The notes beneath the pieces were generated by a model that searched no databases, was not told the origin of the DNA, and was given only the letters and a program-made list of their open reading frames with translations. Positions 950 through 61,379 of a stretch of DNA of 64,000 nt are shown piece by piece (position 1 is the stretch's first letter; each line of letters starts with the position of its first letter). The position numbers were made by a program, and so were the translations under genes. This DNA comes from a candidate division WOR-3 bacterium (GTDB lineage: Bacteria > Hydrothermota > Hydrothermia > Hydrothermales > JAJRUZ01): positions 2,719-66,718 of the forward strand of contig JBDRZP010000007.1 in the NCBI GenBank assembly GCA_039804025.1. Direction: 5' to 3'.

Positions 950-962
950 AAGGTTCAAATCC
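950..962 (+). promoter_or_regulatory. upstream stem-loop motif AAGGTTCAAATCC, 21 nt before the ATG of 984..1496
   Basis: read directly from sequence; one of at least 9 instances of the same T-arm-like motif at constant distance from start codons. Confidence 0.45.
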
Positions 963-983
963 TAAAAAATAGAAAGAAAAAAA

Positions 984-1496
984 ATGGATTTTGGAAAAAT
1001 AATTGAAAAAGCTCTTTCAATTTTACAATTAAAAGAAGATGTAATAAAGGAAGTATCTGAAAAACCTGAATATTTAAATTTTTCAATTTTAATTGTTGCT
1101 ATTGCGGGACTTGCAAGTTCAATTGGTTCTTTTAAGTTTATTCCAGGTATAATCACTGGTCCAATTGTTGCTGTGATTGGATTTTTTATTTGGGTTGGAA
1201 TATTGTGGATTATTGCAAAAATCTTCGGTGGTAAAGGAAATTACCTCTCTTACTTTAAACCTCTTGCAATGTCTGATATAATTCAATGGGTAACAGTTAT
1301 ACCTTTTATAGGCTCTTTTCTTGGTGCCATTGCCTTAATATGGATGGTAATTGTTGCCATAAAGGTAACACAGATTGTTCATGAACTTGATCTTCCTAAA
1401 GCAGTTCTTGTTGTTCTAATACCGATTGGTGTAGTCTTCTTCCTGTTTCTTCTTTTTGGGGCTGCAGCCCTTGCTGTAATTGGAATGAGAGGATAA
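984..1496 (+). CDS. Yip1-domain-like small polytopic membrane protein
   Basis: 170 aa; hydrophilic N-terminus followed by 4-5 hydrophobic helices, the layout of Yip1/YIF1-type proteins. Confidence 0.45.
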   Translation: MDFGKIIEKALSILQLKEDVIKEVSEKPEYLNFSILIVAIAGLASSIGSFKFIPGIITGPIVAVIGFFIWVGILWIIAKIFGGKGNYLSYFKPLAMSDIIQWVTVIPFIGSFLGAIALIWMVIVAIKVTQIVHELDLPKAVLVVLIPIGVVFFLFLLFGAAALAVIGMRG

Positions 1497-1505
1497 AAAT
1501 CTTAA

Positions 1506-2855
1506 TCAAGAATAAAAGAAATTTTAACTAAATTTGAAAATAAATTATTAAGAGATAAAGATTTATTAATCAAATATTCTGAGGACGAATCACCGGTTAA
1601 GGGTAAAATACCAGAATTTGTATTTCTTCCTCAAAAAGTAGAAGAAGTCTCTGAATTTATTAAATACTGCTTTAAGTATAAAATTCCAATAACACCAAGA
1701 GGAGGGGGAACAGGTCTTTCAGGTGGTGCTGTTCCTTTAAAAGGTGGTGTTATATCCTTTGAAAGGATGAATAAAATTATTGATATTGACGAAATAAATC
1801 AATATGTGGTCCTTGAGCCTGGTGTAATTACAGGGGAAATTAATAAAGTTCTTAAATCCTTTGATCTTTTTTATCCACCTGATCCAATGAGTCTTGATTC
1901 ATGTACCATTGGTGGTAATGTTGCAACAAACGCAGGGGGTCCTAAGGCTTATAAATATGGTGTTACATCAAATTACCTTCTTGAACTGGAATGTGTATTT
2001 CCAAATGGGAAAGTAGAAACAATAGGTAAAAGAACAAGAAAATGGAAGGCTGGTTACAACCTATTGAATTTCTTATGTGGTTCTGAAGGAACACTTGCAT
2101 TATTTACAAAGATTACTCTTAAGGTAATTCCAAAACCTGAAAAAGAGATTCTTATAATGCTTGGATTTGAAGAAAATAATAAACTTTTTGAGTTTGTAAA
2201 AAAAATTATCAAAAATAAATTTTTCCCTTCAGTAATTGAATTTATGGATAAAAGTTGTTTTAATTTAGTAAAAGAGAAAATTAAAAATTTTTTCCAAATA
2301 GAAAGTTCTATACTCTTTATCAGTTTTGAAGGAGGGGAAAAAGATATAGAAAAGATTATTGAAAGATTTTATTTACTAACGGAAAAAGAAAAGATAAATA
2401 ACATTTTTGTAGGAGATGATAAAAATACTATTGAAAGAATGTGGAATATAAGAAAAAATATGTTTTATGAAACAGAAAAAATGGGTTTTAAAGTTCATTC
2501 AGAGGATGCAGGGATAACATTAACAAAAGCTATAGAATTTATTGAGGATATAAAAAAAATTCTTAAGGATTATAATAAAGAAGGTTATATATTCGGTCAT
2601 CTTGGTGATGGGAATATACATATAAATTTGACTTATAAAATGGATGAAAAAGGGTTGATTAAGGAAATTTCAAAAATTATATGGAATCTCATAATAAAAT
2701 ATGGTGGGACAATAACTGCAGAGCATGGAATAGGTTATTTAAAAAAGGAAGGGTTTAAAAGAGAAATATCACCTTTTTTATACAGAATTCATAAAGATAT
2801 TAAAAAAATTTTTGACCCAAAAGGCATTTTGAACCCGGGAAAAATTTTTTACTAA
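1506..2855 (+). CDS. FAD-linked oxidase (glycolate oxidase subunit GlcD / D-lactate dehydrogenase family). Track ORF starts at ATG 1767, but the FAD-binding domain is encoded in frame upstream from about 1506 with no ATG/GTG/TTG
   Basis: Upstream in-frame translation reads ...PVKGKIPEFVFLPQKVEEVSEFIKYCFKYKIPITPRGGGTGLSGGAVPLKGGVISFERM, the FAD-binding PCMH signature, joining MNKIIDIDEINQYVVLEPGV... C-terminal FAD-oxidase_C-like region; total about 449 aa, typical of GlcD. Confidence 0.6.
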   Translation, partial: SRIKEILTKFENKLLRDKDLLIKYSEDESPVKGKIPEFVFLPQKVEEVSEFIKYCFKYKIPITPRGGGTGLSGGAVPLKGGVISFERMNKIIDIDEINQYVVLEPGVITGEINKVLKSFDLFYPPDPMSLDSCTIGGNVATNAGGPKAYKYGVTSNYLLELECVFPNGKVETIGKRTRKWKAGYNLLNFLCGSEGTLALFTKITLKVIPKPEKEILIMLGFEENNKLFEFVKKIIKNKFFPSVIEFMDKSCFNLVKEKIKNFFQIESSILFISFEGGEKDIEKIIERFYLLTEKEKINNIFVGDDKNTIERMWNIRKNMFYETEKMGFKVHSEDAGITLTKAIEFIEDIKKILKDYNKEGYIFGHLGDGNIHINLTYKMDEKGLIKEISKIIWNLIIKYGGTITAEHGIGYLKKEGFKREISPFLYRIHKDIKKIFDPKGILNPGKIFY

Positions 2856-2901
2856 ATTTTAACTCAAATTATAGAATAAAAGTTTATTTAAAGATTTAAA
2901 A

Positions 2902-2935
2902 GGGGAAAAGGAGAATAATACTCTCCCCTCCCCCT
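2902..2935. terminator. putative bidirectional terminator hairpin (GGAGA-ataatac-TCTCC inside a G/C-rich extended stem) between convergent genes
   Basis: inverted repeat at 2910-2926 with flanking GGGG/CCCC arms, followed by a T-rich stretch; lies between the + gene ending 2855 and the - gene ending 2953. Confidence 0.4.
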
Positions 2936-2952
2936 GTTATATATCTCCTTAA

Positions 2953-4200
2953 TTACACCCAGCCTCTTAATTTCATTCCTTCCACCACTCTTCTCACTGC
3001 CACAGCGTATGCAGCAGTTCTGGGGTCAACATTAAATTCTTTCATAGCATCCCAGACAGCATTAAAGGACTTTGTCATTTTTGTATCAAGTCTCGAATAA
3101 ACCTCTTCCTCTTCCCAGTAAAACCCAGTAATATTCTGAACCCATTCAAAGTAAGAAACAGTAACACCACCTGCATTAGCAAGAAAATCAGGTAAAAATA
3201 AAATATTTTTCTTGTGCAAAATTTCATCAGCTTCAGGAGTAACAGGTCCATTTGCAAGCTCTAAAATTATTTTAGCCTTTATTTTATTTGCATTTTCTTC
3301 TGTTATCACTTCCTCAAGTGCTGCTGGAATAAGAATATCCACATCCAGTTCAAGAAGCTCCTCATTTGTTATTTTTTCACTTCCTTTAAAACCTACTACA
3401 GAACCTGTTTTATTTTTATGTTCAAAAACTTCCTCAAAGGGAAGTCCTTTCTTGTTTAAAATTCCACCTTTTGAATCGCTGACAGCAATAACTTTTGTTC
3501 CGAACATTTCTGTTATAAGTTTGTGGGCAAAGTATCCTGCATTTCCGTATCCCTGAATTGCACAGGTTGCTTTTTTAAGGTCTATCCCGAGTTTTTTAGC
3601 AGCTTCTCTCAATACATACATACCACCTCTTGCAGTAGCATCATTTCTTCCAACAGAACCACCTATTCTTAAAGGTTTCCCGGTAATTACCCCAGGGGCA
3701 TTATACTGTCTTATTTTACTGAATTCATCCATCATCCAAGCCATTATCTGGGGATTTGTGTAAACATCAGGAGCAGGAATATCCTTTTCAGGTCCTATTA
3801 CCTGGGCTATAGCTCTTATATATCCTCTTGAAAGTTCTTCCAGTTCCCTTTGAGACATTTCTTTTGGATTACATACAACACCACCCTTTCCCCCACCATA
3901 AGGTAAATCCATAAGTGCTGTTTTCCATGTCATCCAGGCTGCAAGTGCTCTAACAGTATCAATAGTTTCCTCAGGATGGAATCTTATACCACCCTTTGTT
4001 GGGCCAAGAGCATCATTATACTGAACCCTGAACCCTCTAAATACCTTAACAGTTCCATTATCCATTTTTACAGGTATAGAAACATGTATTTCCCGCATAG
4101 GCCACCTTAGCATCTCGTGAACATGAGGCTCAAGTTTTAAAACTTGGGCAGCTTTATCAAGCTGCTCCTGAGCAACTTCAAAGGGATTTTTTTTAGCCAT
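2953..4200 (-). CDS. gdhA: NAD(P)-dependent glutamate dehydrogenase
   Basis: 415 aa; catalytic GGGKGG motif, Rossmann IQGYGNAGY, overall Glu/Leu/Phe/Val dehydrogenase family layout. Confidence 0.9.
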
Positions 4201-4233
4201 TTTTAGTCCTCCAATTGTTATTTTTAAATTTTA

Positions 4234-4246
4234 GGGGATTTAACCC
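4234..4246 (-). promoter_or_regulatory. variant of the upstream stem-loop motif (GGGTTAAATCCCC on the minus strand), 33 nt upstream of the gdhA start
   Basis: read directly; one nucleotide shorter loop and longer spacing than the other instances. Confidence 0.25.
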
Positions 4247-4313
4247 TCCTCCTTTTTAAATTAATTATATAATAACTTTACAAATTCAGTCAAATAATTT
4301 AAAATATAATTAT

Positions 4314-4326
4314 AAGGTTCAAGTCC
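4314..4326 (+). promoter_or_regulatory. upstream stem-loop motif AAGGTTCAAGTCC, 23 nt before the ATG at 4350
   Basis: read directly; preceded by TATAAT at 4305-4310 and followed by SD GAGGT. Confidence 0.45.
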
Positions 4327-4349
4327 CTTTTTAAAAAAGAGGTTAAAAA

Positions 4350-4529
4350 ATGAACATTTCAAAAATAATTTTTATACTTTCCCTTATTACTTTTATAATA
4401 GCAATTGTTTTAAAACTTACAGGCACTGAATTCCCTCATCTTTTTAAACCTTATACCTACCTGAAAGGGACCTGGACATTACTTTTATTTTCTATTAGTT
4501 ACCATTTGATTTTTGAAAAGGGGAAATAA
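4350..4529 (+). CDS. small hydrophobic membrane protein (59 aa), below the ORF-track length cutoff
   Basis: ATG with SD (AAGAGGTtaaaaaATG) and the conserved upstream motif; translation MNISKIIFILSLITFIIAIVLKLTGTEFPHLF... has one clear TM helix. Confidence 0.4.
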   Translation: MNISKIIFILSLITFIIAIVLKLTGTEFPHLFKPYTYLKGTWTLLLFSISYHLIFEKGK

Positions 4530-4556
4530 AAGGGAAAAATATTTTAAAATATATAT

Positions 4557-4955: not shown

Positions 4956-6826
4956 CCCTTTTAAATCCAAGATTTACCTTTAAAAACTTTGTTGAATATA
5001 AAGGGAACAGAATGGCAAAAAGAGCCCTTGAAACCATAATAGAGGATCCACTTGTTTTCAATCCAGTCTTTATATACTCAGAACCAGGAATGGGTAAAAC
5101 CCACCTTGTAACTGCTCTTACACACAGATTAAGAGAAAAAAACATTAAGGACCTTTTTCTTATACCAAAAGAATTTGAAAAAAATTATGAAAAAATATAC
5201 GATTTTAAAAAGGGATTTTTAATCATTGATAATTTTGAAAATTTTTCAAAAATAAAAAGTGAAATAATTGAGGAGTTCACGAATAATTTTGAAATACTTC
5301 TTGCGAATGAGGTTGAAATAATTCTCTCTTCCTCAATTCCCTATAATGAATTAAAGGACCTACCTTTCGAACTTTTATCAAGGATAAAAGGAGGCCTTTT
5401 AATAGAAATATTGCCACCTGATGAAGAAGATATTAAAATCATTATAAAAGAGAAACTAATTAAAAGAGGAATAGAATTAGAGGAAAGATTTATTAATTTG
5501 ATTTCAAGGAAAAATTACAAAAATATAAGAGAAATAGAAGGTGATATAAATAAAATTTTTTTAAGGTTTATTTCAAAAGAAAAAATTGAAGAAAAAGATA
5601 TAGAAGAAATAACAGGAATATCACTTCCTATACTCTTCTTTTCAGATATAATACCTGAAATTGAAAAAAGCCTTGAAAAATTAGAAGTAGTTGCAAGGGA
5701 AGAGGAAGCTTTAAAAACAGCCTTAAAGGAAAAAATTTATATATGGGAAATGAAGGGATTTAAAACTGATAGACTCAAAAAACTTATAGGAGTAAAAGAC
5801 TTGCAGATTTTAAAAGAAGAATACAGAAAATTTATCAGCGATGTTACAAAACTGATTGAGTATCAAAAAATTTATGGTGAAATAGGTGTTCAAGATATAG
5901 AAATTGAAAAAGCCCTTTTTGATCCTGATAGGGTTCTTGAGGTTGAAAAATGGATAGAAGAGATAAAAAGCAGTGTTTTAAAGAAAGAGGAACCAATAAT
6001 TCTAGAAGAAGCTATAAAGGAATCTGAAGAAACTGAAGAAATTGAAGAAATCAGTACTACAGAAGAAAAAAAAGAAATTGAAGAAATTATAGAAGTAAAA
6101 GAAGAGGAAGAAGTATTTATAATTGAGTCTGATTATAACAGAGATGTTCTTGAAGAAATAAAAAAACAAGCAAGAGAAGGTAAACCTGAGATTTTACTTA
6201 TCTTTTCTCAGGGAAGGAGGGGACTTTCAACTCATCTTCTTTATGCTTATGAAATAAATAAAGAAAAGAAAAAAGTTTTTTACCATTCAAATGACATATC
6301 AGATTTATTCTTTGAAGACGAAAGTAAACTTAATACAATTTTTAAAGATTATAATTTTATTGTAATAGATGATGCAGAAATATTTTTTGATGTGGAGGAT
6401 TTAAGAGATAAAATTTTACCTTTAATTATAGAAGAAAAAAATAATGGGAAAAAATTTTTAATAGGAATAAAGAAAAATCCTGAAGAAATCTATTTACCGG
6501 AGGAATACAAAAAAGTATTTGAGTCTTCAAAAAATGTTTCCTTAAAAAAACCAGATAGAAAAATACTTGAAGAAATTTTAAATGAAAAAATAAAAAAAGA
6601 AAACTTGAACCTCGATGAAAATCTAAAAGAAGAAATTCTTAATAGAGAGTTTTTTGATTTAAAAGAATTTGAAGATTATCTTAAGGAAACACAGAAAATA
6701 ATTGAAAATAGAGTAAAAAAAGAGGAAATTAAAATAAGTCTAAAGGGAAACTCAGCCAATGAGAAAAGTAATATAATTTTTGATATTGAAATAATAGAAG
6801 AAAGAATTTTTGAGGACTACCCATGA
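4952..6826 (+). CDS. DnaA/Hda-family AAA+ ATPase-like protein with a second degenerate AAA+-like module and no DnaA domain IV
   Basis: N-terminus LNPRFTFKNFVEYKGNRMAKRALETIIEDPLVFNPVFIYSEPGMGKTHLVTALTH matches the DnaA AAA+ box (NPxYTFdnFVvG..N..A......Npl.NPlFiYG..GlGKTHLl.Ai); Walker B-like FLIIDNFE; second module ILLIFSQGRRGLSTHLLYA...FIVIDDAE; E/K-rich linker between; start overlaps upstream stop (ATGA). Confidence 0.6.
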   Translation: MTLLNPRFTFKNFVEYKGNRMAKRALETIIEDPLVFNPVFIYSEPGMGKTHLVTALTHRLREKNIKDLFLIPKEFEKNYEKIYDFKKGFLIIDNFENFSKIKSEIIEEFTNNFEILLANEVEIILSSSIPYNELKDLPFELLSRIKGGLLIEILPPDEEDIKIIIKEKLIKRGIELEERFINLISRKNYKNIREIEGDINKIFLRFISKEKIEEKDIEEITGISLPILFFSDIIPEIEKSLEKLEVVAREEEALKTALKEKIYIWEMKGFKTDRLKKLIGVKDLQILKEEYRKFISDVTKLIEYQKIYGEIGVQDIEIEKALFDPDRVLEVEKWIEEIKSSVLKKEEPIILEEAIKESEETEEIEEISTTEEKKEIEEIIEVKEEEEVFIIESDYNRDVLEEIKKQAREGKPEILLIFSQGRRGLSTHLLYAYEINKEKKKVFYHSNDISDLFFEDESKLNTIFKDYNFIVIDDAEIFFDVEDLRDKILPLIIEEKNNGKKFLIGIKKNPEEIYLPEEYKKVFESSKNVSLKKPDRKILEEILNEKIKKENLNLDENLKEEILNREFFDLKEFEDYLKETQKIIENRVKKEEIKISLKGNSANEKSNIIFDIEIIEERIFEDYP

Positions 6827-11717: not shown

Positions 11718-11754
11718 ATTTGAAATTAGGAATTCAAAAATAGTATAAATAAAC

Positions 11755-12627: not shown

Positions 12628-13244
12628 TTGATTTAAAAAAAATTTTTAGAAAAACTTATGTTTTAAAAAATATAAATTTTGAAATAAAAGAAAAAGGTCT
12701 TTATCTATTTATTGGTGACAACGGTGCGGGTAAAACAACTCTTTTTAAAATTCTTTCCTTTTTACTTTTCCCCTCAGGTGGAGAAATATTTTACATGGAA
12801 AAAAAAATAAGAGACAATCAGGAAAAAATTTTAAAAAATATAGGCTTTTCAACTCATAATCCCTTTCTTTATCCTGACTTAACCTGTCTTGAGAATCTGG
12901 AATTTGCATCAAAATTTTATAATATAAAAAAAGAGGTAATTTTTGAAATTTCTGAAATTTTTGAAACAAGTGAGTATCTCCGCAAAAAAGTAAAGGAACT
13001 TTCAAGAGGTCAGCTTCAGAGGATTTCCTTAATAAAATCAATGCTCCATGACCCTCTATTTTTATATCTTGATGAACCTTTTAATGCACTTGATAAAAAG
13101 GGAGTAAAAATTCTTGAAGATTATATCATTAAAAATCTTGATAGAAAAATAATCTGTATATCAAGTCACACCCATTCTGATATTTTTGAAAGGAAAAGAA
13201 AAGCCTATTATTTAAAAAAAGGTGAAATTATCAGAGAGGAATAA
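12597..13244 (+). CDS. ABC transporter ATP-binding protein (short, CcmA-like), no adjacent permease
   Basis: Walker A GDNGAGKTTL, signature LSRGQLQRISL, Walker B LYLDEP; overlaps upstream ORF by 31 nt. Confidence 0.75.
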   Translation: MEEKGSYLRVIDLKKIFRKTYVLKNINFEIKEKGLYLFIGDNGAGKTTLFKILSFLLFPSGGEIFYMEKKIRDNQEKILKNIGFSTHNPFLYPDLTCLENLEFASKFYNIKKEVIFEISEIFETSEYLRKKVKELSRGQLQRISLIKSMLHDPLFLYLDEPFNALDKKGVKILEDYIIKNLDRKIICISSHTHSDIFERKRKAYYLKKGEIIREE

Positions 13245-14244
13245 ATTTAAAAAAACCTTCTCTTCTTTCTACTTCAAAATTTAAAAAATGTTTACATGTC
13301 CAGATTGCTGTTTCAAAGTGTCTTGTTGGTTCTGGAACAAAAATTTCTCCTCCATATAAACAAAGAAAAGGAACTAACTGGTCAGAAAGATTTGGATCAG
13401 GAGAATCACCTCTTTTTAAGAGAAATAAAAATCTATCGGCAATTTCTTCACCCAGTTTTTCAGAACTTACTCCTTTTTTACATAATATATCAAGAGCAAG
13501 TTCTCTATTACCATCAAAAATTCCCTTGATAAAAAAAGCACATCCAGGTGAAAGGGATTCCTCATAAGATATTTCTATATCCTTGATAACATTTATTTCT
13601 TTAACTTTTTTCAAAAAGGATTCTTTCATTCTTTCGAGAACTCTTCTTTCTTTCAAAATTATTGAACCTGATAATTTGCCCACTATTTTTTTAAGTTCTC
13701 CTTTTCCAAAATTTAGATTTATTTTATCAAGTTTTCCATGAAATTTAAGTTTAACAAAACCTCCACCCTGTGGGTAATATCCCCTTCTTATAATAAAAAT
13801 TTCATTTTCAAAAAGAATTTTTTCAAATAAAGGTAAAAAATGAAACCTGAAATAATCAAAGGTGGGGGCACCTTCTACATCAGTTCCCCCCTGTATTTCA
13901 AGATATAAAGGTTTTTCAGATATAAGGGAAACAGGGAAAATTGTCTGTAAAAAAAGGGGAATTGAACCAGCGGTTTTAAAATCCATTTTAACCTTTCCGC
14001 CTTTAATTTTTCCTGGAAAAAATTTAACTTCAAGGGAATTTAAAGTATCACCTTCTACCTTTATATCAGATATTTCCTTTAAACATTTTATAATATGTAA
14101 ATGTTGGTTTTTAAGCCCTGGATTTGGTCTTCCTCTTCTAATGTTATAGATATAAAAGGGCTTTTTTGTTAATAGTGAAAGAAAAAGAGAAATCCTTAAA
14201 ATCTGACCTCCACCTTCAAGGTAAGAGCCATCAATTTGAATCAT
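13231..14244 (-). CDS. rtcA: RNA 3'-terminal phosphate cyclase
   Basis: N-terminus IDGSYLEGGGQILRISLFLSLLTKKPFYIYNIRRGRPNPGLKNQHL matches the RtcA signature (GGGQ[IV]LR...R...PGL..QHL). Confidence 0.85.
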   Translation of the reverse strand: MIQIDGSYLEGGGQILRISLFLSLLTKKPFYIYNIRRGRPNPGLKNQHLHIIKCLKEISDIKVEGDTLNSLEVKFFPGKIKGGKVKMDFKTAGSIPLFLQTIFPVSLISEKPLYLEIQGGTDVEGAPTFDYFRFHFLPLFEKILFENEIFIIRRGYYPQGGGFVKLKFHGKLDKINLNFGKGELKKIVGKLSGSIILKERRVLERMKESFLKKVKEINVIKDIEISYEESLSPGCAFFIKGIFDGNRELALDILCKKGVSSEKLGEEIADRFLFLLKRGDSPDPNLSDQLVPFLCLYGGEIFVPEPTRHFETAIWTCKHFLNFEVERREGFFKFIPL

Positions 14245-14252
14245 ATACTAAT

Positions 14253-14732
14253 TTACTTCCTCAAACTTTCAGTGAATTCTAATCCTTTCTCAGTTAAAAC
14301 ATAAAGTGGTTTTCCATTCCTCTTTTTAGGTAAAGAATAAATAAAATTTTTTTTTCTAAACTTCTGTAAAAAGGTTGAGGGATTTTTTGATATTTTCCAT
14401 TTCATTATTTTATAGATTGATTTTATATCAGAAAGTGTAAAGGATTTTCTTCCAAAATTCTCATAATAGAATCTCGCAGCAAGTAACATTTTTTCAGTAT
14501 TACTTTTTATTTTAAAATTTTTAAAATAATCCTTTGTTTTTTCTAAATCACTCTCTTCTAACTTGATTTTTTCTTTTTCAAAATATTTCTCTTTTTCAAT
14601 ATACTTCTCTTCAGGAAACTTTTTAAAAAAAGTTTTTAAAAATTCCTTAAATTTTCTTTCAACAAAATCCCTGTCACCCTGAATTTCTAACTCTAAATTT
14701 CCTTCCTTAATTCTTATAAGATATGTTGACAT
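14253..14732 (-). CDS. hypothetical K-rich protein
   Basis: 159-aa ORF; carries the conserved upstream motif at 14756-14768. Confidence 0.4.
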   Translation of the reverse strand: MSTYLIRIKEGNLELEIQGDRDFVERKFKEFLKTFFKKFPEEKYIEKEKYFEKEKIKLEESDLEKTKDYFKNFKIKSNTEKMLLAARFYYENFGRKSFTLSDIKSIYKIMKWKISKNPSTFLQKFRKKNFIYSLPKKRNGKPLYVLTEKGLEFTESLRK

Positions 14733-14755
14733 TATTTTCTCCCTTATGGATTTAT

Positions 14756-14768
14756 GGAATAGAACCTT
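14756..14768 (-). promoter_or_regulatory. upstream stem-loop motif (minus-strand AAGGTTCTATTCC), 23 nt upstream of the start at 14732
   Basis: read directly; in a divergent intergenic region shared with the 14816 instance. Confidence 0.45.
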
Positions 14769-14815
14769 TAAAAAGCAGTATATTATAATAACTTATGAAG
14801 ATTTTTTTTTCAATT

Positions 14816-14828
14816 AAGGTTCAAATCC
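14816..14828 (+). promoter_or_regulatory. upstream stem-loop motif AAGGTTCAAATCC, 24 nt before the ATG at 14853
   Basis: read directly; identical 13-mer to the 950 instance. Confidence 0.45.
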
Positions 14829-14852
14829 TCTTATTAAAAAGAAGGGTAAAAA

Positions 14853-18482: not shown

Positions 18483-18491
18483 AGTTTTAAT

Positions 18492-19376: not shown

Positions 19377-19390
19377 AGGGTCTAATTCCC
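19377..19390 (+). promoter_or_regulatory. upstream stem-loop motif AGGGTCTAATTCCC, 20 nt before the ATG at 19411
   Basis: read directly; AGGG/CCCT stem with a 7-nt loop. Confidence 0.4.
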
Positions 19391-25509: not shown

Positions 25510-26067
25510 CTATCTTAAATGTCTTATAATTTCCAATACTTCTCTATGTCTTTCCTCTGCATTCTTTTCCATAACTCTTAAAGTCTCATCCATTTTATAA
25601 AGCATCTCACTTATTTTTTCTAAAATCTCTGATTGCTTATTTAGAATTTCTGTGTGCCTATTTATCGTTTCTGATTGCTTATTTAACATTTCTGCCATCT
25701 TATTTAACATTTCTGTTTGCTTATTTAACATTTCAGTTTGTTTATTTAGCATTTCAGTTTGCTTATTTAGCATTTCTGATTGCTTATTTAGCATTTCAGT
25801 TTGCTTATTTAGCATTTCTGATTGCTTATTTAATGTTTCTGTTTGCTTGTTTAATATTTCTGATTGCTTATTTAATGTTTCTGTTTGCTTGTTTAATATT
25901 TCAGTCTGTTTGTTTAGCATTTCAGTATGTTTATTTAAAATTTCATTCTGTTTATTTAGCATTTCATTTTGTTTACTTATCATTTCCTTCATCCATCTGC
26001 CATTACTCCATGCAAGATAAGTTAAAACTCCTGCAAGAAGGGTCAGTCCTATTCCAAATATTTCCAT
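25510..26067 (-). CDS. N-terminally membrane-anchored coiled-coil protein built from about 17 heptad repeats (LNKQTEM/LNKQSEI)
   Basis: N-terminal TM MEIFGIGLTLLAGVLTYLAW then perfect 7-aa periodicity encoded by 21-nt DNA tandem repeats. Confidence 0.5.
   Translation of the reverse strand: MEIFGIGLTLLAGVLTYLAWSNGRWMKEMISKQNEMLNKQNEILNKHTEMLNKQTEILNKQTETLNKQSEILNKQTETLNKQSEMLNKQTEMLNKQSEMLNKQTEMLNKQTEMLNKQTEMLNKMAEMLNKQSETINRHTEILNKQSEILEKISEMLYKMDETLRVMEKNAEERHREVLEIIRHLR
25628..25985. repeat. about 17 tandem copies of a 21-nt unit (consensus gattgcttatttagcatttct) inside the 25510..26067 gene
   Basis: read directly; units differ by 1-3 substitutions. Confidence 0.85.
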
Positions 26068-26160
26068 AGTATAAAATTATAAAGAAAAAATGCATTAAAT
26101 ACCAATTTTATTAGAATACCCTTCCTTTTTCTTTCTCCTAATTTTAATTTATTTTCCAGT

Positions 26161-28182
26161 TTACCTTGTGATTATAACTTTAAAAGGTTTATTCTCTTTG
26201 TTATATTTTAAAAAGTAAATGCCAGAGCAAATTCCATCAATGGATAATGAAATTCTTGAATTTGATTTGCTCACTCTATAAGTTCTAACTTTCTCACCAA
26301 GAACATTATAAAGTTCAAATTGACTTATTTTATCTTTAATCAAATGATTTGATTCAATCTTTATCTCATTTTTAACAACATTACCTAATAACCTGAATTC
26401 TTCTTTTGAAAAATCGTTTTCCTCTATTCCATATCCATAAAACTTGTAAATCTGTAAACCAGCATAATAATCAGCTACATAGGCGTAATTTTCTGAAACA
26501 TAAACACCTTCTGCCCATTCAGGTGTCTGATAGTATCCTACTTCATATGGTGAAGAAGGATTTGAAACATTTATTATCCTTAAACCAGAATTCCCATCAG
26601 CAACATAGGCATAATTGTCTGAAACATAAACACCCTGTGCATAGCCAGGTGTATCATAATATCCTACTTCATATGGTGAAGAAGGATTTGAAATATCTAT
26701 TATCCTTAAACCAGAACCTCCATCAGCAACATAGGCATAATTGCTCGAAACATAAACACCCTGTGCATAGCCAGGTGTATCATAATATCCTACTTCATAT
26801 GGTGAAGAAGGATTTGAAATATCTATTATCCTTAAACCAGCCCTCTCATCAGCAACATAGGCATAATTGCTCGAAACATAAACACCTAATGCAGCTCCAG
26901 GTGTATCATAATATCCTACTTCATATGGTGAAAAAGAATTTGAAACATCTATTATCCTTAAACCAGAACCCTTATCAGCAACATAGGCATAATTGCCCGA
27001 AACATAAACACCTATTGCATCGTCAGGTGTATAATAATATCCTACTTCATATGGTGAAGAAGGATTTGAAATATCTATTATCCTTAAACCAGCATAATAA
27101 TCAGCAACATAGGCATAATTGCTTGAAATATAAACACCTAATGCAGCTCCAGGTGTATCATAATATCCTACTTCATATGGTGAAAAAGGATTTGAAACAT
27201 TTATTATCCTTAAACCAGCCCTCCCATCAGCAACATAGGCATAATTGCTCGAAACATAAACACCTATTGCATCGTCAGGTGTATAATAATATCCTACTTC
27301 ATATGGTGAAGAAGGATTTGAAACATTTATTATCCTTAAACCAGAATTCCCATCAGCAACATAGGCATAATTGTCTGAAACATAAACACCCTGTGCAGCT
27401 CCAGGTGTATCATAATATCCTACTTCATATGGTGAAGAAGAATTTGAAACATCTATTATCCTTAAACCAGAACCTCCATCAGCAACATAGGCGTAATTGC
27501 CTGAAACATAAACACCCCATGCCCAGCCAGGTGTATAATAATATCCTACTTCATATGGTGAAGAAGGATTTGAAACATCTATTATCCTTAAACCAGAAAT
27601 TCCATCAGCAACATAGGCGTAATTGCCTGAAATATGAACACCTAATGGATAGCCAGGTGTATTATAATATCCTACTTCATATGGTGAAGAAGGATTTGAA
27701 ACATTTATTATCCTTAAACCAGCATAATAATCAGTAACATAGGCGTAATTGCCTGAAACATAAACACCATAAGAATAGCTAGGTGTAAAATAATGACCAA
27801 GTTTGATTGGATTTGACGCATCTGTAACATCCCATATTTCAAGTCCACCTTGTTCTGTTGCAATATACAATCTCTTATTTACTGGTTCATAAAAAAGTCC
27901 CCAAACAAATCCCCTTGTATAAATTTTTTCTGAAACTTTTTGAGGATTAGAAGGATTTGAAACATTTAAAATATATACACCACCACCTGAACCCAAAAAT
28001 ACAAGGTTCCTTGAAGGATCAAAAGAAACTGCAAAAGAAGGACCAAATGGCCAGTTGCCTATGAATCGGACATTCATTGAATCAAAACCTGCCTTTACTT
28101 CAATTTCAGAAGGAGGAAACAATTTCCAGGGCTTATAATTAATTCCGGTATTTATCAAATTTATAAGTATGAATACCAACAT
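26161..28182 (-). CDS. secreted LVIVD-repeat (beta-propeller-like) protein with T9SS-type C-terminal sorting domain
   Basis: about 11 copies of a 40-aa unit [41 protein letters not shown] (LVIVD repeat pattern); signal-peptide-like N-terminus; C-terminus ...[20 protein letters not shown] is T9SS-CTD-like. Confidence 0.7.
   Translation of the reverse strand: [673 protein letters not shown]
26440..27790. repeat. about 11 tandem copies of a 120-nt unit (near-identical) encoding the LVIVD repeats
   Basis: recurring strings such as tattatccttaaaccag at 120-nt spacing (26573, 26693, 26813, ... 27653). Confidence 0.85.
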
Positions 28183-29166: not shown

Positions 29167-29231
29167 AATTTAAATTATAAAGAAAAGATACGAAAAATTC
29201 AAATATTTAAATCTTCTTGATTTTAATTTTT

Positions 29232-36693: not shown

Positions 36694-36724
36694 TTTGAAT
36701 TATAAAATCTTTTCTTTTACTGGT

Positions 36725-40583: not shown

Positions 40584-40584
40584 T

Positions 40585-42144: not shown

Positions 42145-42167
42145 TATTTTTTATAAATTTAAATGTT

Positions 42168-42180
42168 GGATTTGAACCCC
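42168..42180 (-). promoter_or_regulatory. upstream stem-loop motif (minus-strand GGGGTTCAAATCC), 23 nt upstream of the nuoM start
   Basis: read directly. Confidence 0.45.
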
Positions 42181-42255
42181 TTTAATTATAAAATAATTTT
42201 TTTTTAAAATCAAAAAAAATTTGTATGAAAAATTGAGAGTTTAATAAAATTAAAA

Positions 42256-43848: not shown

Positions 43849-43871
43849 AAAAAGGATACTCTATGAATTCT

Positions 43872-44327: not shown

Positions 44328-44447
44328 TTTTAAATTATATTGAATAAGGATAAATAATTTAAAATTATTTTATGATACCGAAAGAATTTAAATTGACATG
44401 TTATAATTTGGAAGAAATAGAGAAAAAACACGATGAGATAGTAAAAA

Positions 44448-48229: not shown

Positions 48230-48232
48230 TGA

Positions 48233-49261: not shown

Positions 49262-49276
49262 ATTATTTTCTCCTTT

Positions 49277-51331: not shown

Positions 51332-51385
51332 GGATGGTAATTATAAAATTAGAAAAAAAGCAAAAACAAATAAAAGTTTGAAAAA

Positions 51386-54074: not shown

Positions 54075-54098
54075 ATAATGGGTTCTTTATAAAGATAA

Positions 54099-55856: not shown

Positions 55857-55958
55857 AAGTTTTCCTCCTTTATTTTTATTAAATAAAATTTATTATAATC
55901 TTTTTGTATTTTAAAGTTCAATTTTGAAAACAAGTTTAAAAATTTCTTATTTTAAAAT

Positions 55959-56894: not shown

Positions 56895-56996
56895 AAAATG
56901 TGATTTAAATCACTTGTAATTTTTAAAAAATCAATATATAATTAAAAATAACCATCTCTATAAGCTCCTAATTAGTTGGGGGGGTACTTAGAGATG

Positions 56997-57010
56997 AGGG
57001 TCCGAGTCCC
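56997..57010 (+). promoter_or_regulatory. upstream stem-loop motif AGGGTCCGAGTCCC, 22 nt before the ATG at 57032
   Basis: read directly; SD AGGAG lies between motif and ATG. Confidence 0.4.
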
Positions 57011-57031
57011 TATAAAATAAAGGAGTTTAGT

Positions 57032-58861
57032 ATGTATAAATTAATTCCAATGATCTTATTCGCAGTATTTCTCCTGGGATTCACGGAGAAAGAAATCACA
57101 GGGGAAGTTGTAATACAAAATCCTGTAAAAAAAGAAAATATCAAACTCCCACAGAACTTCAACCCTGAAAGTGCTGAGAGGGAACTCATAAATGCAAGAG
57201 AATCTGGAAATAAAGAACTCGCTGGTGAGTTATCGAAATATATACATGAATGGTGGAAGATGAATAGAAAGGAAAACTACTCCCCGATAACCTGTGGGGA
57301 TAACCCTGAACCAGGTAAAAATTTAAAGGAAGAAAATTCAAACTTTAACCAGAATATTCTGAGATGGGGAAATGATGTGAGAATTGATCCAAGAAATGGA
57401 GTAAACGATGTTAAAATAACCTCCCTTTCAACAGGTGAACTCTATACAATTTCGAAATTTTTTGATGGGACAAATTACCGTGTTATAGTTCACAGATCCA
57501 CTGATAATGGAGAAACATGGAATATTTATTGGGATAATACTTTTTCAACAGGGTATAGCATCACTTCACCCGGCATCTTAGCAGTTAATGATACCCTTGT
57601 TTTATGGTACATTTTAATCCAAAACGATACTCTCTATAGAACATGGTTTATCACTGCTTTACCAGGAAATTCTTTCAATCCTATATCCTTTGGTTCTCCC
57701 ACAGGAGGATTTAATGACAATGTCCAATATTGGAATCTTGATTTCAAAACAGATGCACCTCATTACGGTTTATATGAATATAACTATGCAACCTGGGTTG
57801 AATATTATTATGTAGGAACGGATTCAACAAGTGTGATGTTTGCAAGATCAAATGAACTTAATGTCTCAAACTGGGAATTAGGTCCTGTTAAGGTAATGAA
57901 AACCTCCGGGGATAATATATATTATTATCACTCTAAAATTTCTTTTGGTGACCCTCATAGACTATGGATTATTGGACCCTTACATCCATACGGGTATCCC
58001 AATATTTATGATGAGACTATCGGGGGTGTTTATAGTGATGACTATGGGTCTTCCTGGACCCCAAGCAACCCATTTAATCCATTATGGATAACTCCTTTCA
58101 ATGACCATTACGATGATTTTGAGTGTGATTTAGCTGCATCCTATATTGATTCAAACTGGGTAATTTTAGTTACAAGAACAGATACAGGCATACTTCATTT
58201 TCAAGACCTAAATCTTTACAACTACTATTCAAAAAATGGAGGGAATACATGGAATTTTCAGGGATGGGTAATGCCTGATCTTAATTTTAGTCCTGATGTT
58301 TATGTTGATAATTCAAGCACTGCCTTTTATGCTGTTTTCAGAAAGAATATCCCTTCAGGCCCATATGAAGAAGTAAGACTTAAAATAGGTAATATAAATG
58401 ACCCCTCATCCTGGACTGGTTCATATCTTAATATAATAAACGATGATAGTACTGACAACTTAAGTGATGACTTTGGGTCCTATGTAAGTTATAACCCTTC
58501 CACAAATGAGCCTGTTGTGGTATGGACAAGTTTTGAAGGTTTTACTTACAGTATATGGTTTGATGCTCAAACAAGAGTTAAAATTTCTGAAAAAATCATA
58601 AATGAAGAAAATGAAACCACACTTATACCGAGTATTGGGAAAAATAATTTAAAAATTTTCTTCTACATACCATCCCCTTCAAATGTTAAACTGAATATCT
58701 ATTCCCCTGATGGAAGAATTGTAAAAAATATTCTTAACTCAAAACTTAATAAAGGTAATTACACTTATAACATAAGAAACACATTGAAAAATGGCAAATA
58801 CTTTCTAAAACTTGAAACTGAGAATACAAAAGTTTCTATACCCTTAATCATTGTTAAATAA
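57032..58861 (+). CDS. secreted BNR-repeat (sialidase/glycosidase-like) protein with T9SS-type C-terminal sorting domain
   Basis: signal peptide; BNR motifs STDNGETW, SKNGGNTW, DDYGSSWT; C-terminus NVKLNIYSPDGRIVKNIL...GKYFLKLETENTKVSIPLIIVK matches the T9SS CTD. Confidence 0.65.
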   Translation: MYKLIPMILFAVFLLGFTEKEITGEVVIQNPVKKENIKLPQNFNPESAERELINARESGNKELAGELSKYIHEWWKMNRKENYSPITCGDNPEPGKNLKEENSNFNQNILRWGNDVRIDPRNGVNDVKITSLSTGELYTISKFFDGTNYRVIVHRSTDNGETWNIYWDNTFSTGYSITSPGILAVNDTLVLWYILIQNDTLYRTWFITALPGNSFNPISFGSPTGGFNDNVQYWNLDFKTDAPHYGLYEYNYATWVEYYYVGTDSTSVMFARSNELNVSNWELGPVKVMKTSGDNIYYYHSKISFGDPHRLWIIGPLHPYGYPNIYDETIGGVYSDDYGSSWTPSNPFNPLWITPFNDHYDDFECDLAASYIDSNWVILVTRTDTGILHFQDLNLYNYYSKNGGNTWNFQGWVMPDLNFSPDVYVDNSSTAFYAVFRKNIPSGPYEEVRLKIGNINDPSSWTGSYLNIINDDSTDNLSDDFGSYVSYNPSTNEPVVVWTSFEGFTYSIWFDAQTRVKISEKIINEENETTLIPSIGKNNLKIFFYIPSPSNVKLNIYSPDGRIVKNILNSKLNKGNYTYNIRNTLKNGKYFLKLETENTKVSIPLIIVK

Positions 58862-58892
58862 TTTTTTAGATTTACTCTGAAAAAATATAGGG

Positions 58893-58920
58893 GGGAGGTG
58901 GTTTAAAAACTATCTCCCCT
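58893..58920. terminator. putative bidirectional terminator hairpin (GGGGAG...CTCCCC) followed by T-run, between convergent genes
   Basis: inverted repeat at 58893-58920 then tcttttatttt. Confidence 0.4.
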
Positions 58921-58923
58921 CTT

Positions 58924-60219
58924 TTATTTTAAAAGTTTTCTTTCAAAGGCTTCCCTTTCCAGCTGTTCCCTAAAATCAGGGTGAGCAATTTCTATTAAAG
59001 CCTTTGCCCTTTCTTTTAAAGACTTTCCCCATAATTCAGCAATACCGTATTCTGTTACCACATACCTTACATCAGCCCTTGTTGTTACAACTCCTGCACC
59101 TTCCTTCAATTTGGATACAATTTTTGATACTTTTCCACCTTTTGCTGTTGAAGGAATTGCTATAATGGGTTTTCCATTTTTACTCCATCCTGCTCCCCTT
59201 ATAAAATCCACCTGTCCACCAAAACCTGAATAAATGTATGTTCCAATGGAATCTGAACAAACCTGGCCCGTCAAATCAATCTCAATTGCTGAATTGATAG
59301 CAACCATATTATCATTTCTTGCAATAATAAAAGGATGATTAACATAATCACAGGGATGGAGTTCAAAAATAGGATTATTATGGCAAAAGTTATAAAGATC
59401 TTCAGAACCAAATATAAAAGTTCCGATAACTTTCCCTGGATGTAAAGTCTTTCTCGCACCTGTAATGGTTCCATCAAGAATCCTCTCCATTATTCCATCA
59501 GAAATCATCTCGGTGTGAATGCCAAGATCTTTTTTACCTTTTATAAATTTCAAAACTGCATTCGGTATACCACCTATTCCAACCTGTAAAGTGGCACCAT
59601 CATCAATTAAATCTACAATATATCTTGCAATTTTTTCCTCTGTTTCTGTAGGTTCTATTTTAGGAAGAGTATATAAAGGTTCATCAATTTCACAAAGAGC
59701 TGTTATCTTCGATATATGAACAAAACAATCTCCAAGTGTTCTGGGCATTCTCCTATTTACCTGAGCTAAAACCTTTTTAGCACTCTGTATAGCAGCCTTT
59801 GTTGCAATAACTTCAACACCGAGGCTCAAAAATCCGTGCTCATCAGGTGGAGAAGTATGAATTATAGCAACATCAATTTTAATCTTACCTTCTCTTATCA
59901 AAACAGGAATTTCATGCAAATGACAGGGAATATACTCAGCATTACCTTCATTTACAGATTCTCTATCAGCAGGCCCAACAAAAAGAGATTTATGTATAAA
60001 ATTTTCATAAGTTCCATGCTTTTTAAAAGGGTCTTCACCTGCCTGTAATACATGATAAACTTTTACATTTTCAAGATCTTTTCTTCTTGCAAGAAAATCA
60101 AGCAAAAAACTGGGAGTAGCTGCATTTCCGGAGACAAATACTGAGTCTCCGGATTTTATAAGTGATATAATTTCTTCTGGACTTTTTTTCCTTTCATGAT
60201 ACATTTTAAGAAAACTCAT
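58924..60219 (-). CDS. acetyl-CoA hydrolase/transferase family protein (4-hydroxybutyrate CoA-transferase-like)
   Basis: N-terminus YHERKKSPEEIISLIKSGDSVFVSGNAATP and overall 431-aa layout typical of Cat2/AbfT. Confidence 0.75.
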   Translation of the reverse strand: MSFLKMYHERKKSPEEIISLIKSGDSVFVSGNAATPSFLLDFLARRKDLENVKVYHVLQAGEDPFKKHGTYENFIHKSLFVGPADRESVNEGNAEYIPCHLHEIPVLIREGKIKIDVAIIHTSPPDEHGFLSLGVEVIATKAAIQSAKKVLAQVNRRMPRTLGDCFVHISKITALCEIDEPLYTLPKIEPTETEEKIARYIVDLIDDGATLQVGIGGIPNAVLKFIKGKKDLGIHTEMISDGIMERILDGTITGARKTLHPGKVIGTFIFGSEDLYNFCHNNPIFELHPCDYVNHPFIIARNDNMVAINSAIEIDLTGQVCSDSIGTYIYSGFGGQVDFIRGAGWSKNGKPIIAIPSTAKGGKVSKIVSKLKEGAGVVTTRADVRYVVTEYGIAELWGKSLKERAKALIEIAHPDFREQLEREAFERKLLK

Positions 60220-60233
60220 AAAAATCCCCTCCT

Positions 60234-61349
60234 TTATAAAACAGGATAACCTTCACTCCACGGATGTTTCCTTGTAAATTTTCCCTTAAAAGTATAACAA
60301 CCATTCCATAGAGCTTTATTTTCTTTTATATAATCAATTCCATTTTTAACAATTTCTTTTAAATATGGAATTAAAGCATTGGAAAGAGCATGTGAAGCAG
60401 TTCTTGCTACAAAAGAAGGAACATTAGGAACACAAAAATGAATCACACCGAATTCTTTGTAAACAAAACTTTCTGTTGGTGTAAGTCTTGATGTCTCACA
60501 TGCACCTCCCTGGTCTATAGAAAAATCAATTATAACAGAACCGCTTCTCATAGATTTAACCATATCCCTTGTAACAATCTTCGGGGTTTTCTCTCCTGGA
60601 ACAAGAATTGCTAAGATAAGAACGTCAGCAAATTTAACAAATTTAGAAATATTTTCGTAAGTTGCAATAGCAGTAACTACTCTTCCACCGAAAATTTCAT
60701 CAACTTTTTCAAGTTTATTTTTTGAAATATCAAGCATATAAACCGAAGCTCCCAATCCAAGAAAAGACCTTGCAGCATAAGTTCCAAGTGTTCCGGAACC
60801 TATTATAACAACATCAGCAGGAGGTATCCCTGGAATACCACCTAAAAGAATTCCAAGCCCACCCCTTTCTGTTTCAAGCAATCTACCTGCAATCTGGGGA
60901 GCGAGTTTACCGGCTATTTCACTCGAAACCCTTAAAATTGGTAAAGTTCCATCCTCTTCCTGAATTATTTCGTAACCAATAGATGTAATCTTCTTTTCAA
61001 CAAAGGCATCATATATATTTTTTGGTTTCACAGCAAGATGCAAAAATCCAAAAATGACATGGTTTTCTTTCAAAAGTGAAAGTTCACTTTCGAAAGGCTG
61101 GTTTATTCCTAAGATAATATCAGACCTTAAAAAAACTTCTTCCTTTGAATATACTATTTGGGCGCCTTTTTCCTTATACTCTTCATCAGTAAAACCAGCA
61201 CCTTCTCCTGCTTTGCTCTCTAAGTAAATTTCAGCTCCAAGATCAATTAACTCTTTACAGGCTGAAGGAGAAAGAGGCACTCTTTTTTCATAAATATTAC
61301 CCTCTCTTTCCGATAAGGGAATACCTATTATTATTCTATCCATAAACAC
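60234..61349 (-). CDS. ald: alanine dehydrogenase (GTG start at 61349; ATG at 61343 more likely the true start)
   Basis: collinear with Ald: IGIPLSEREGNIYEKRVPLSP..., VIIGSGTLGTYAARSFLGLGASVYMLD Rossmann; first codon in the track ORF is GTG. Confidence 0.85.
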   Translation of the reverse strand: MFMDRIIIGIPLSEREGNIYEKRVPLSPSACKELIDLGAEIYLESKAGEGAGFTDEEYKEKGAQIVYSKEEVFLRSDIILGINQPFESELSLLKENHVIFGFLHLAVKPKNIYDAFVEKKITSIGYEIIQEEDGTLPILRVSSEIAGKLAPQIAGRLLETERGGLGILLGGIPGIPPADVVIIGSGTLGTYAARSFLGLGASVYMLDISKNKLEKVDEIFGGRVVTAIATYENISKFVKFADVLILAILVPGEKTPKIVTRDMVKSMRSGSVIIDFSIDQGGACETSRLTPTESFVYKEFGVIHFCVPNVPSFVARTASHALSNALIPYLKEIVKNGIDYIKENKALWNGCYTFKGKFTRKHPWSEGYPVL

Positions 61350-61364
61350 CCTCCTTTAAAAAGA

Positions 61365-61379
61365 GGGGGTTGAACCCTC
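61365..61379 (-). promoter_or_regulatory. upstream stem-loop motif (minus-strand GAGGGTTCAACCCCC), 21 nt upstream of the ATG at 61343
   Basis: read directly; SD GGAGG between motif and ATG. Confidence 0.4.

Follow-up and report, generated by a model that had tools for sequence, protein, structure and literature searches.

Nine copies of a short sequence resembling the top of a tRNA T-arm lie in the 64-kb window of DNA analysed here, each on the strand of, and a short distance 5′ of, a gene that it faces. The window (64,000 nt; positions 2,719 to 66,718 of contig JBDRZP010000007.1, assembly GCA_039804025.1) has a G+C content of 29% and comes from a bacterium that lives in hot springs and belongs to the uncultured WOR-3/Hydrothermales group. 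A contig of the metagenome-assembled genome (MAG) GCA_039804005.1 has an identical copy of the window's radical SAM gene, and close homologues carry the labels Candidatus Hydrothermales or candidate division WOR-3. The copies, hereafter the motif, are predicted hairpins with a 7-nt loop and are listed here with residues numbered as in tRNA.

950..963, plus strand: T-loop hairpin AAGGTTCAAATCCT, 21 nt 5′ of the ATG (984) of a Yip1-like gene, without a Shine-Dalgarno sequence
4233..4246, minus strand: variant T-loop hairpin (A)GGGTTAAATCCCC(T), C56 changed to A, in the leader of gdh, 34 nt 5′ of the ATG (4200)
4314..4327, plus strand: T-loop hairpin AAGGTTCAAGTCCC, 23 nt 5′ of the ATG (4350) of a gene for a membrane peptide of 59 amino acids (aa)
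14754..14768, minus strand: T-loop hairpin AAGGTTCTATTCCA, 23 nt 5′ of the ATG (14732) of the gene for a conserved 159-aa protein, upstream of rtcA
14816..14829, plus strand: T-loop hairpin AAGGTTCAAATCCT, 24 nt 5′ of the ATG (14853) of an AmmeMemoRadiSam-type radical SAM gene
19377..19390, plus strand: probable variant T-loop hairpin AGGGTCTAATTCCC, 21 nt 5′ of the ATG (19411) of a subtilase gene, without a Shine-Dalgarno sequence
42166..42180, minus strand: T-loop hairpin GGGGTTCAAATCCA, 23 nt 5′ of the ATG (42144) of nuoM, without a Shine-Dalgarno sequence
56997..57010, plus strand: variant T-loop hairpin AGGGTCCGAGTCCC, U55 changed to C, 22 nt 5′ of the ATG (57032) of a gene for a protein with a type IX secretion system (T9SS) sorting tail
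61365..61379, minus strand: T-loop hairpin GAGGGTTCAACCCCCTC with a 5-bp stem, 22 nt 5′ of the ATG (61343) of ald, which has a strong Shine-Dalgarno sequence

Two of these copies touch the preceding gene: the one at 950..963 begins right after the stop (947-949) of a conserved open reading frame (ORF, 251-949), and the one at 61365..61379 shares bases with the TGA that ends trkH. Homologues set the start of ald at 61343. The copy before the subtilase gene reads CT at positions 55/56 and retains U54, A58 and the G53:C61 pair with a 4-bp stem; as it lacks an orthologue from another species, it is included because of its position and of the tolerance at 55/56 seen elsewhere. The 159-aa protein belongs to a family of 159-162 aa, also called the 160-aa protein below, which has no Pfam match and is always encoded directly upstream of the gene for RNA 3′-phosphate cyclase (rtcA), both in the window (13231-14732, minus strand) and in the syntenic related loci L004, L006, L007 and L009.

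Three patterns served to count the motif: the 12-mer RGGTYCRARTCC proposed by an earlier, sequence-only reading of the window, a core pattern, GGTTCNANNCC, and a relaxed pattern, GGTNNNANNCC. The 12-mer occurs exactly five times in the window, against 0.09 expected from dinucleotide shuffles, and the other four sites are variants of it. Six of the nine sites match the core pattern. Of the 24 window matches of the relaxed pattern, the nine listed sites form the full intergenic set, and no other match is both 5′ of a gene and on its strand. Beyond the window, we drew on about 237 kb of non-redundant DNA from this genome and at least five related Hydrothermales/WOR-3 genomes, sampled as loci and not as whole genomes (grouped as L004+L040; L006+L010+L037; L013+L012+L038; L009; L041+L011; and L047, a locus of this genome). 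The MAGs with these loci are GCA_039804005.1, GCA_039630235.1, GCA_039630575.1 and GCA_024277525.1. A search of genome contigs with an alignment of a lineage-specific 606-aa protein yielded two loci, and a metagenome search with the 160-aa protein yielded 25, three of them close relatives and 22 distant ones that were used as an outgroup. Gene starts and promoters in this sample are predictions, and its orthologous sites are non-independent. The core pattern has 37 matches in it, 26 of which have a same-strand ORF start 12-36 nt downstream, while 200 scrambled versions that kept its composition and layout had on average 1.4 matches, 6% of them at that distance upstream. All positioned sites are in sense orientation to their gene. 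By the gene calls of the sample, 26 of 177 distinct genes (15%) bear the motif, a share that rises to 29% when only genes preceded by a gap of 15 nt or more are counted. Extrapolated from the density in these loci, a genome would have roughly 100-200 copies. The genes are functionally unrelated and include rpoA, nuoM, gdh, ald and fbp; a common regulon was rejected on this ground.

Outside this group of genomes the motif becomes scarce. In two more distant WOR-3 lineages (L039, L042-45) it is absent at the orthologous nuoM and ald genes, and 38 kb of their DNA hold one core match, which is not 5′ of a start. About 143 kb from other phyla contain five core matches, one of them positioned. Nor was the motif found upstream of the 160-aa gene in the 22 distant loci (22-32% identity, G+C 34-55%); these distant homologues are encoded on metagenome contigs of quite different G+C. 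In viral contigs, a search for TATAAT-N2-12-GGTTCAAATCC matched at least 120 loci, and none of the matches listed has the leader architecture: 32 are in tRNAs and the other 89 are mostly random coding sequence. One look-alike was met within a gene: GGTTCAATTCC also occurs in the coding sequence of rtcA (window 13958-13968, minus strand; L004 9110, L006 9109, L009 9077). This copy, kept in four genomes, is a product of coding constraint and not a leader element, and it serves as an example of a false positive for genome-wide scans.

As many as six genomes retain the motif before the same gene, with flanks and spacer that have diverged. It was found in six genomes each at the radical SAM and 160-aa genes; in three each at nuoM and ald (one ald copy being a C56T variant); and in two each at the Yip1-like, 59-aa peptide and rpoA genes, at gdh (as a variant) and at the T9SS-tail gene (as the U55C variant with a conserved leader). 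The L010 orthologue of the Yip1-like gene retains GGTTCTATTCC (position 1876) in the same order of stop, motif and start; those of gdh and of the 59-aa peptide gene in the same locus have GGGTTAAATTCCC and GGTTCAATTCC, respectively. For nuoM, L037 has GGTTCAACTCC, and the copy in L038, GGTTCAATCCC, has a stem of 7 bp; for ald, GGGTTCAATCCC is the form in L041 and the variant GGGTTTAACCCC that in L040. The copies at 14754..14768 and 14816..14829 are each kept in five related genomes, the former amid flanks that differ and the latter with its 51:63 pair changed from A:U to G:C. Because L041 (9856, minus strand) has AGGGTCCGATTCCC together with the same downstream leader, ATAAAATAAAGGRAG, as the window copy at 56997..57010, we regard the U55C variant of the T9SS-tail gene as conserved. 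At orthologous sites with diverged flanks, the motif is thus under purifying selection.

The Shine-Dalgarno sequence, in turn, differs between orthologues of the radical SAM, 160-aa, ald and 59-aa genes (L004, L006, L010, L041), some genomes having it and others not. The motif persists in these orthologue sets and is therefore the more conserved signal of the two. The regions of the window with a variable Shine-Dalgarno sequence are 14733-14852, 4327-4349 and 61344-61365, and this variability suggests a relaxed dependence on Shine-Dalgarno pairing in this lineage.

Several claims of the sequence-only reading hold up against these data. All nine of its copies are present where and on the strand that it placed them, each faces the downstream gene, and the genes served are unrelated. 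That the copies are neither chance nor mobile-element debris is likewise upheld, the former by the counts given above and the latter by the conservation of orthologous sites amid diverged flanks and the lack of information outside 14 nt.

This last point comes from a family-weighted logo of 34 sites, which reads A50(0.73) R51 G52 G53 T54 T55(0.93) C56(0.84) D57 A58 N59 Y60 C61 C62 Y63 and in which information falls to about zero beyond the 14-nt motif. Compared letter by letter, the consensus A-R-GG-TTC-D-A-N-Y-CC-Y is the tRNA T-arm consensus at each position, free positions included. Among one-mismatch variants validated by position, G53, A58, C61 and C62 are never altered and the sole change of U54 is a doubtful match, while C is allowed at position 55 and any of A, T and G at position 56. 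U54, A58 and the G53:C61 pair are invariant in 33 sites, with positions 59/60 variable, in keeping with the sequence features of the T-loop motif, a U-turn-like 5-nt fold with a 1-5 reverse-Hoogsteen pair, which has U at loop position 1, A at position 5, a Watson-Crick closing pair and, beyond position 5, bulged nucleotides. This invariant set matches what the T-loop fold would need, namely a U54·A58 pair and a G53:C61 closing pair. Positions 55 and 56, relaxed here, serve in tRNA for the contact with the D-loop and for TruB.

The stem is short. Window stems are 2-5 bp long, typically 3, and an extended T-stem of 5-7 bp was rejected. The element is taken to be a 3-bp stem with a 7-nt T-loop because pairs further out are at the random level. 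Within this stem, pair 51:63 is G:C in 11, A:U in 10, G:U in three and U:A in two of 33 sites and unpaired in seven; it is thus paired in 78.8% of sites, against 56.4 ± 5.7% in shuffles, none of 500 of which reach this value, although the control ignores relatedness. This weakness is partly answered because switches on both sides of the pair occur within orthologue sets, from A:U to G:C at the radical SAM gene and from U:A to A:U at nuoM and the 160-aa gene. Nearest-neighbour folding, which has no model for the T-loop, predicts weak hairpins. Pairing of the C-rich 3′ half with the Shine-Dalgarno sequence appears in some minimum-free-energy folds; as a mechanism of sequestration it was rejected, being not significant (z -1.05 to +1.4) and half of the sites having no Shine-Dalgarno sequence. 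The sequence-only reading had described a stem of 4-5 bp and most loops as TTCAAAT. Only three of nine loops are so; six fit TTCNANN, and the three 55/56 variants read TCTAATT, TCCGAGT and TTAAATC. The conserved part is the T-loop itself.

Predicted promoters upstream of four window sites would place the motif 0-11 nt into the transcript.

14785..14813, minus strand: predicted sigma-70-type promoter of the 159-aa gene, TTGAAA-17-TATTAT, 10/12 consensus matches, T-loop at about +10
42185..42213, minus strand: predicted sigma-70-type promoter of nuoM, TTGATT-17-TATAAT, 10/12 consensus matches, T-loop at about +1
4264..4293, minus strand: predicted sigma-70-type promoter of gdh, TTGACT-18-TATAAT, 11/12 consensus matches, T-loop at about +11
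ending at 4305, plus strand: predicted promoter of the 59-aa peptide gene, TTTACA-17-TAAAAT, motif at about +3

The transcription start site (TSS) predicted for nuoM roughly coincides with the first G's of its motif copy. In L004 and L006 a TATAAT is conserved 12-13 nt upstream of the motif. No fixed offset from a -10-like hexamer to the motif was found upstream (2-18 nt), and there is no -10-like signal downstream. At five junctions between genes the order is stop codon, T-loop, about 21 nt and start, in spacers of 34-42 nt, with the motif beginning at or overlapping the co-directional upstream stop. The gene pairs are ORF251-Yip1, trkH-ald and rpsD-rpoA (two genomes each, the last including this one) and ruvX-malic enzyme. 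In the rpsD-rpoA spacer, the copy AGGTTCTATCCCT fills the space right after the rpsD stop, before an rpoA without a Shine-Dalgarno sequence; it is kept in two genomes, at L047 8955-8968, about 30-45 nt past the right end of the window, and at L040 7244-7257. Because promoters are predicted upstream, a fixed -10 offset is missing and copies occur at operon junctions, the motif is probably transcribed and appears to track the start codon and not the promoter. The earlier proposal of a promoter-proximal or 5′-leader RNA element is thus supported by the predicted promoters (motif at about +1 to +11) and by one covarying stem pair, and it is extended by the operon junctions, which show that the motif is not bound to promoters only.

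The distance from the end of the core to the start codon is 21-24 nt at eight window sites, close to the 20-24 nt that had been claimed for all, with gdh (34 nt) falling outside. Across the sample, spacing is 21.5 ± 2.3 nt at 14 sites without a Shine-Dalgarno sequence and 24.4 ± 3.2 nt at 18 sites with one. Placement of the motif just 5′ of a Shine-Dalgarno sequence, also claimed earlier, applies to about half of the sites, the rest having none between motif and ATG: 15 of 26 motif genes also have a Shine-Dalgarno sequence and 11 are without any. The gdh leader has, besides its real Shine-Dalgarno sequence, a conserved GGAGG directly 5′ of the variant hairpin and about 45 nt before the ATG (window 4247-4256, minus strand; L010 at about 5134-5146, minus strand).

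Many other window genes have a TATAAT-type hexamer that ends 5-8 nt before the ATG and no Shine-Dalgarno sequence, and others have a short leader with a Shine-Dalgarno sequence. Judged from this spacing, the genes of the former kind look like sources of leaderless mRNAs; examples lie upstream of minus-strand genes at 26068-26090, 29167-29190, 36694-36712, 44328-44348 and 51332-51355, and on the plus strand at 11735-11754. In the related loci, 63 genes without the motif have an upstream gap, and about 24 of them are of this leaderless-looking type.

Taken together, the motif looks like an apparently undescribed general gene-expression signal on mRNA; full-text searches of the available library turned up no account of it, either for bacteria in general or for WOR-3. 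Our leading interpretation, held tentatively and with somewhat less than even confidence, is that it is a transcribed mimic of the T-arm with an effect in cis. By way of a partner that recognises T-arms, it would act on the cistron downstream of it, translation initiation being the most likely step. The element would comprise a 3-bp stem (R51:Y63, G52:C62, G53:C61) closing the 7-nt loop U54-U55-C56-D57-A58-N59-Y60, a copy of the top of the tRNA T-arm. It would sit in 5′ leaders of monocistronic or first cistrons, 0-11 nt from the predicted TSS, and in intercistronic spacers right after the upstream stop, in either case about 19-28 nt 5′ of the start codon of the gene that it faces. There it may fold and be recognised as a tRNA-like T-arm by a partner in trans, the ribosome or a T-arm-binding protein, which would promote or position translation initiation independently of the Shine-Dalgarno sequence. 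We favour translation initiation because the element tracks the start codon, occurs in operons, persists when the Shine-Dalgarno sequence is lost and precedes nuoM and rpoA, which have none. The bolder version, that the T-loop copy is a new bacterial translation-initiation signal read by the ribosome itself, for example at the site that contacts the T-loop or elbow of tRNA, we consider rather improbable. In that case the start codon about 22 nt downstream would be set in the P site, and ribosomes could enter leadered and polycistronic mRNAs internally and independently of a Shine-Dalgarno sequence. The lineage otherwise appears to rely heavily on leaderless and Shine-Dalgarno-less initiation.

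Several observations weigh against a role of a T-arm mimic in initiation. The promoter positions are consensus matches only, in DNA of 71% A+T; the gdh copy is 34-36 nt from its start; and leaders that are uniformly short could by themselves account for the near-constant distance to the ATG. Other genes that lack a Shine-Dalgarno sequence and are not leaderless exist in these genomes without the motif, so the motif is not required for Shine-Dalgarno-independent initiation. Covariation is limited to the single pair 51:63, counted on related sequences, and since GG/CC never vary, the two main pairs cannot show any. Finally, the 3-bp stem is predicted to be unstable and the leader folds no better than shuffles, which means that the element of a thermophile cannot do without a partner.

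Among the rival explanations, the least tenable is that the sites are chance matches, decayed fragments of tRNA genes or a mobile repeat of the MITE or REP type. The motif is identical in sequence to the tRNA T-arm, and one site reaches 18.6 bits as a tRNA (Rfam RF00005), below the gathering score of 29. ARAGORN found no tRNA in the 64-kb window, in line with the earlier remark that no complete tRNA can be folded around any copy, and none in ten related loci; in the whole window Rfam returned no family at gathering score and only sub-threshold noise in E-value mode, with no tRNA at 14756 or 14816. Enrichment far above shuffles and scrambled controls, similarity that ends at 14 nt and conservation of the same sites at orthologous genes speak against this explanation, which is effectively refuted; REP and MITE elements in particular were rejected on information near zero beyond 14 nt and on copies at orthologous positions, always 5′ of a start. 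It is doubtful, too, that the motif is an element of double-stranded DNA, an operator of a global transcription factor or a promoter-proximal TSS element, with its T-arm likeness a coincidence. Such an element would suit the proximity to -10-like hexamers, the palindromic frame RGG-N7-CCY as for a dimeric protein and the place before many transcription units. The motif, however, is strictly oriented, including two outward-facing copies in divergent regions; it stands at no constant distance from -10-like hexamers, whether on its upstream side (2-18 nt) or on its downstream side; copies lie within operons right after stops, as between rpsD and rpoA; the G/C, A/T and T/A covariation at 51:63 is a base-pairing pattern and not an independent preference of half-sites; and the eight specified positions coincide with the tRNA T-arm consensus while the degenerate ones coincide with variable tRNA positions. 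Orientation, the missing promoter geometry, operon copies, covariation and so improbable a coincidence together make a DNA-level element the less likely reading. A -35 of leaderless promoters would need at least 26 nt to the ATG where 19-23 are observed, and this candidate, like a -10-like element, was ruled out by geometry and the missing partner hexamer. An intrinsic terminator or attenuator was also rejected, there being no terminator-like site on the motif strand in three scanned regions and a mean stem of 3.2 bp, whereas a terminator has a G+C-rich stem of at least 5 bp and then a U-run. A run of four or more T's comes after only about a quarter of the sites, and every site leads to a gene start.

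Other rivals accept a transcribed T-loop hairpin and assign it a different job. It might mark or protect the 5′ end of the downstream mRNA segment, either by blocking 5′-end-dependent decay or by directing an endonuclease that parts cistrons at the boundary of stop codon and T-loop in the manner of tRNA-like punctuation; this is unlikely, if with something to be said for it. The motif lies 0-11 nt from predicted TSSs, operon copies start exactly at the upstream stop, where a cut would yield a 5′-terminal hairpin, and tRNA-like elements act as processing signals elsewhere. A 3-bp stem is nevertheless a poor physical block, the variable offset from predicted TSSs would leave up to about 11 unpaired nt and hence no protection against 5′-end-dependent enzymes, the acceptor/T-arm helix of about 12 bp that RNase P and RNase Z need is absent, and a simple stabiliser needs no loop sequence this specific. 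In tRNA, TruB converts U55 to Ψ55, TrmA or TrmFO forms m5U54 and TrmI forms m1A58. That the T-loop copies are substrates of such enzymes, the output being modification or chaperone-like binding, seems to us quite improbable; an output of this kind has been proposed for the TRUB1/Pus4 and TRMT6/61A sites of eukaryotic mRNAs. U54 and A58 are invariant (with one doubtful exception at U54), and the core equals the recognition motif GUUCNANNC (PMC5340967), which at most sites stands in a loop whose stem has 2 bp or more; PMC13492117 states, citing Safra 2017, that TRUB1 needs only a stem of at least 2 bp. The conserved U55C variant (window 56999, L041 9856, two genomes) and the tolerated C56A/T/G variants do not fit GUUCNANNC and would abolish TruB-type recognition; bacterial TruB binds short stem-loops weakly (Kd >1 µM; PMC13492117); and a pure modification role leaves the fixed distance to the start codon unexplained. 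TruB as universal reader is argued against by these conserved variants and by its weakness on short stems.

Some further observations concern other genes of the window. The gene at 26161-28182 contains a 126-bp unit repeated 10.5 times (26470-27794, minus strand) in a 673-aa protein with Pfam LVIVD repeats and a T9SS C-terminal sorting domain. The neighbouring gene at 25510-26067 has a 21-bp unit repeated 17.4 times (25621-25986, minus strand), a 7-residue repeat in a 185-aa protein that has only weak coiled-coil-like Pfam matches. Upstream of an ORF resembling FAD-linked oxidases (1767-2855), the sequence at 1497-1766 still reads as coding (PRGGGTGLSGGAVP) and has no start after the preceding stop, and a 22-bp tandem duplication at 1721-1766 lies exactly upstream of the ORF; this region may be a frameshifted gene or an assembly error.

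If the proposed role of the T-arm mimic is correct, 14-nt copies of the tRNA T-arm serve an entire bacterial lineage as a general signal at about 15% of its genes, a new class beside the known bacterial gene-start signals of Shine-Dalgarno sequences, A/U-rich leaders and leaderless AUG. The lineage would further offer a natural example of T-loop mimicry in mRNA under clear purifying selection, while the function of eukaryotic TRUB1, Pus4 and TRMT6-61A sites is still debated. As an easily scanned marker, the motif improves the annotation of start codons and operons in WOR-3/Hydrothermales MAGs, and phylogenetic profiling of where it occurs could identify the reader protein. Hydrothermales relatives have the motif, and the sampled loci of two other WOR-3 lineages do not. 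A cultured WOR-3 strain, sy37 (NBRC 116057, genome AP038914), exists (PMC12285271) and may allow experiments if it carries the motif.

Several known systems resemble parts of this picture. Bacterial 5′-leader stabilisers and enhancers, such as the ompA-type 5′-terminal hairpin, the cryIIIA STAB-SD and epsilon or A/U-rich enhancers, are likewise short, gene-independent cis elements; they lie 5′ of the ribosome-binding site, close to where the leader begins, and act on stability or translation. The conserved GGAGG before the gdh copy recalls the STAB-SD. To our knowledge, neither a tRNA-like loop nor a loop of defined sequence occurs in any of these, whereas here the loop is conserved and not the strength of the stem. 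The tRNA-like processing signals, namely mitochondrial tRNA punctuation, plant mitochondrial t-elements and RNase P sites in Escherichia coli operon mRNAs, also put tRNA-derived shapes between cistrons, as the motif does at the upstream stop of five junctions, but the motif has none of the acceptor/T-arm helix by which RNase P or RNase Z measures such signals and without which they do not work. In the intergenic-region internal ribosome entry site (IGR IRES) of dicistroviruses, a eukaryotic viral element of about 190 nt with pseudoknots, the L1.1 region binds the ribosomal L1 stalk by mimicry of the tRNA elbow. The logic would be the same, an mRNA element imitating a part of tRNA that the ribosome contacts and so allowing initiation without the usual signal, although there is no sequence relation and ribosome binding of our motif is purely hypothetical.

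The closest likeness is to the T-arm itself and to its mimics in mRNA. The tRNA T-arm (positions 49-65, consensus GGTTCRANYCC) shares with the motif G52 G53 T54 T55 C56 (R)57 A58 N59 Y60 C61 C62, the 7-nt loop and the G53:C61 closing pair; the motif differs in lacking acceptor, D and anticodon arms, in a stem of about 3 bp and not 5, in A/T/G and not purine at position 57, and in its place in mRNA leaders. T-loop-like sites in eukaryotic mRNAs are scattered, mostly in coding sequence and 3′ untranslated regions, and are generally regarded as opportunistic. Those modified by TRUB1/Pus4 (Ψ) and TRMT6/61A (m1A) are T-arm-mimic hairpins with a short stem and the same GUUCNANNC consensus, the documented T-loop motif (PMC5340967; PMC13492117). 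What sets the copies described here apart from these eukaryotic sites is the purifying selection on them, their fixed place before start codons and their presence at about 15% of genes.

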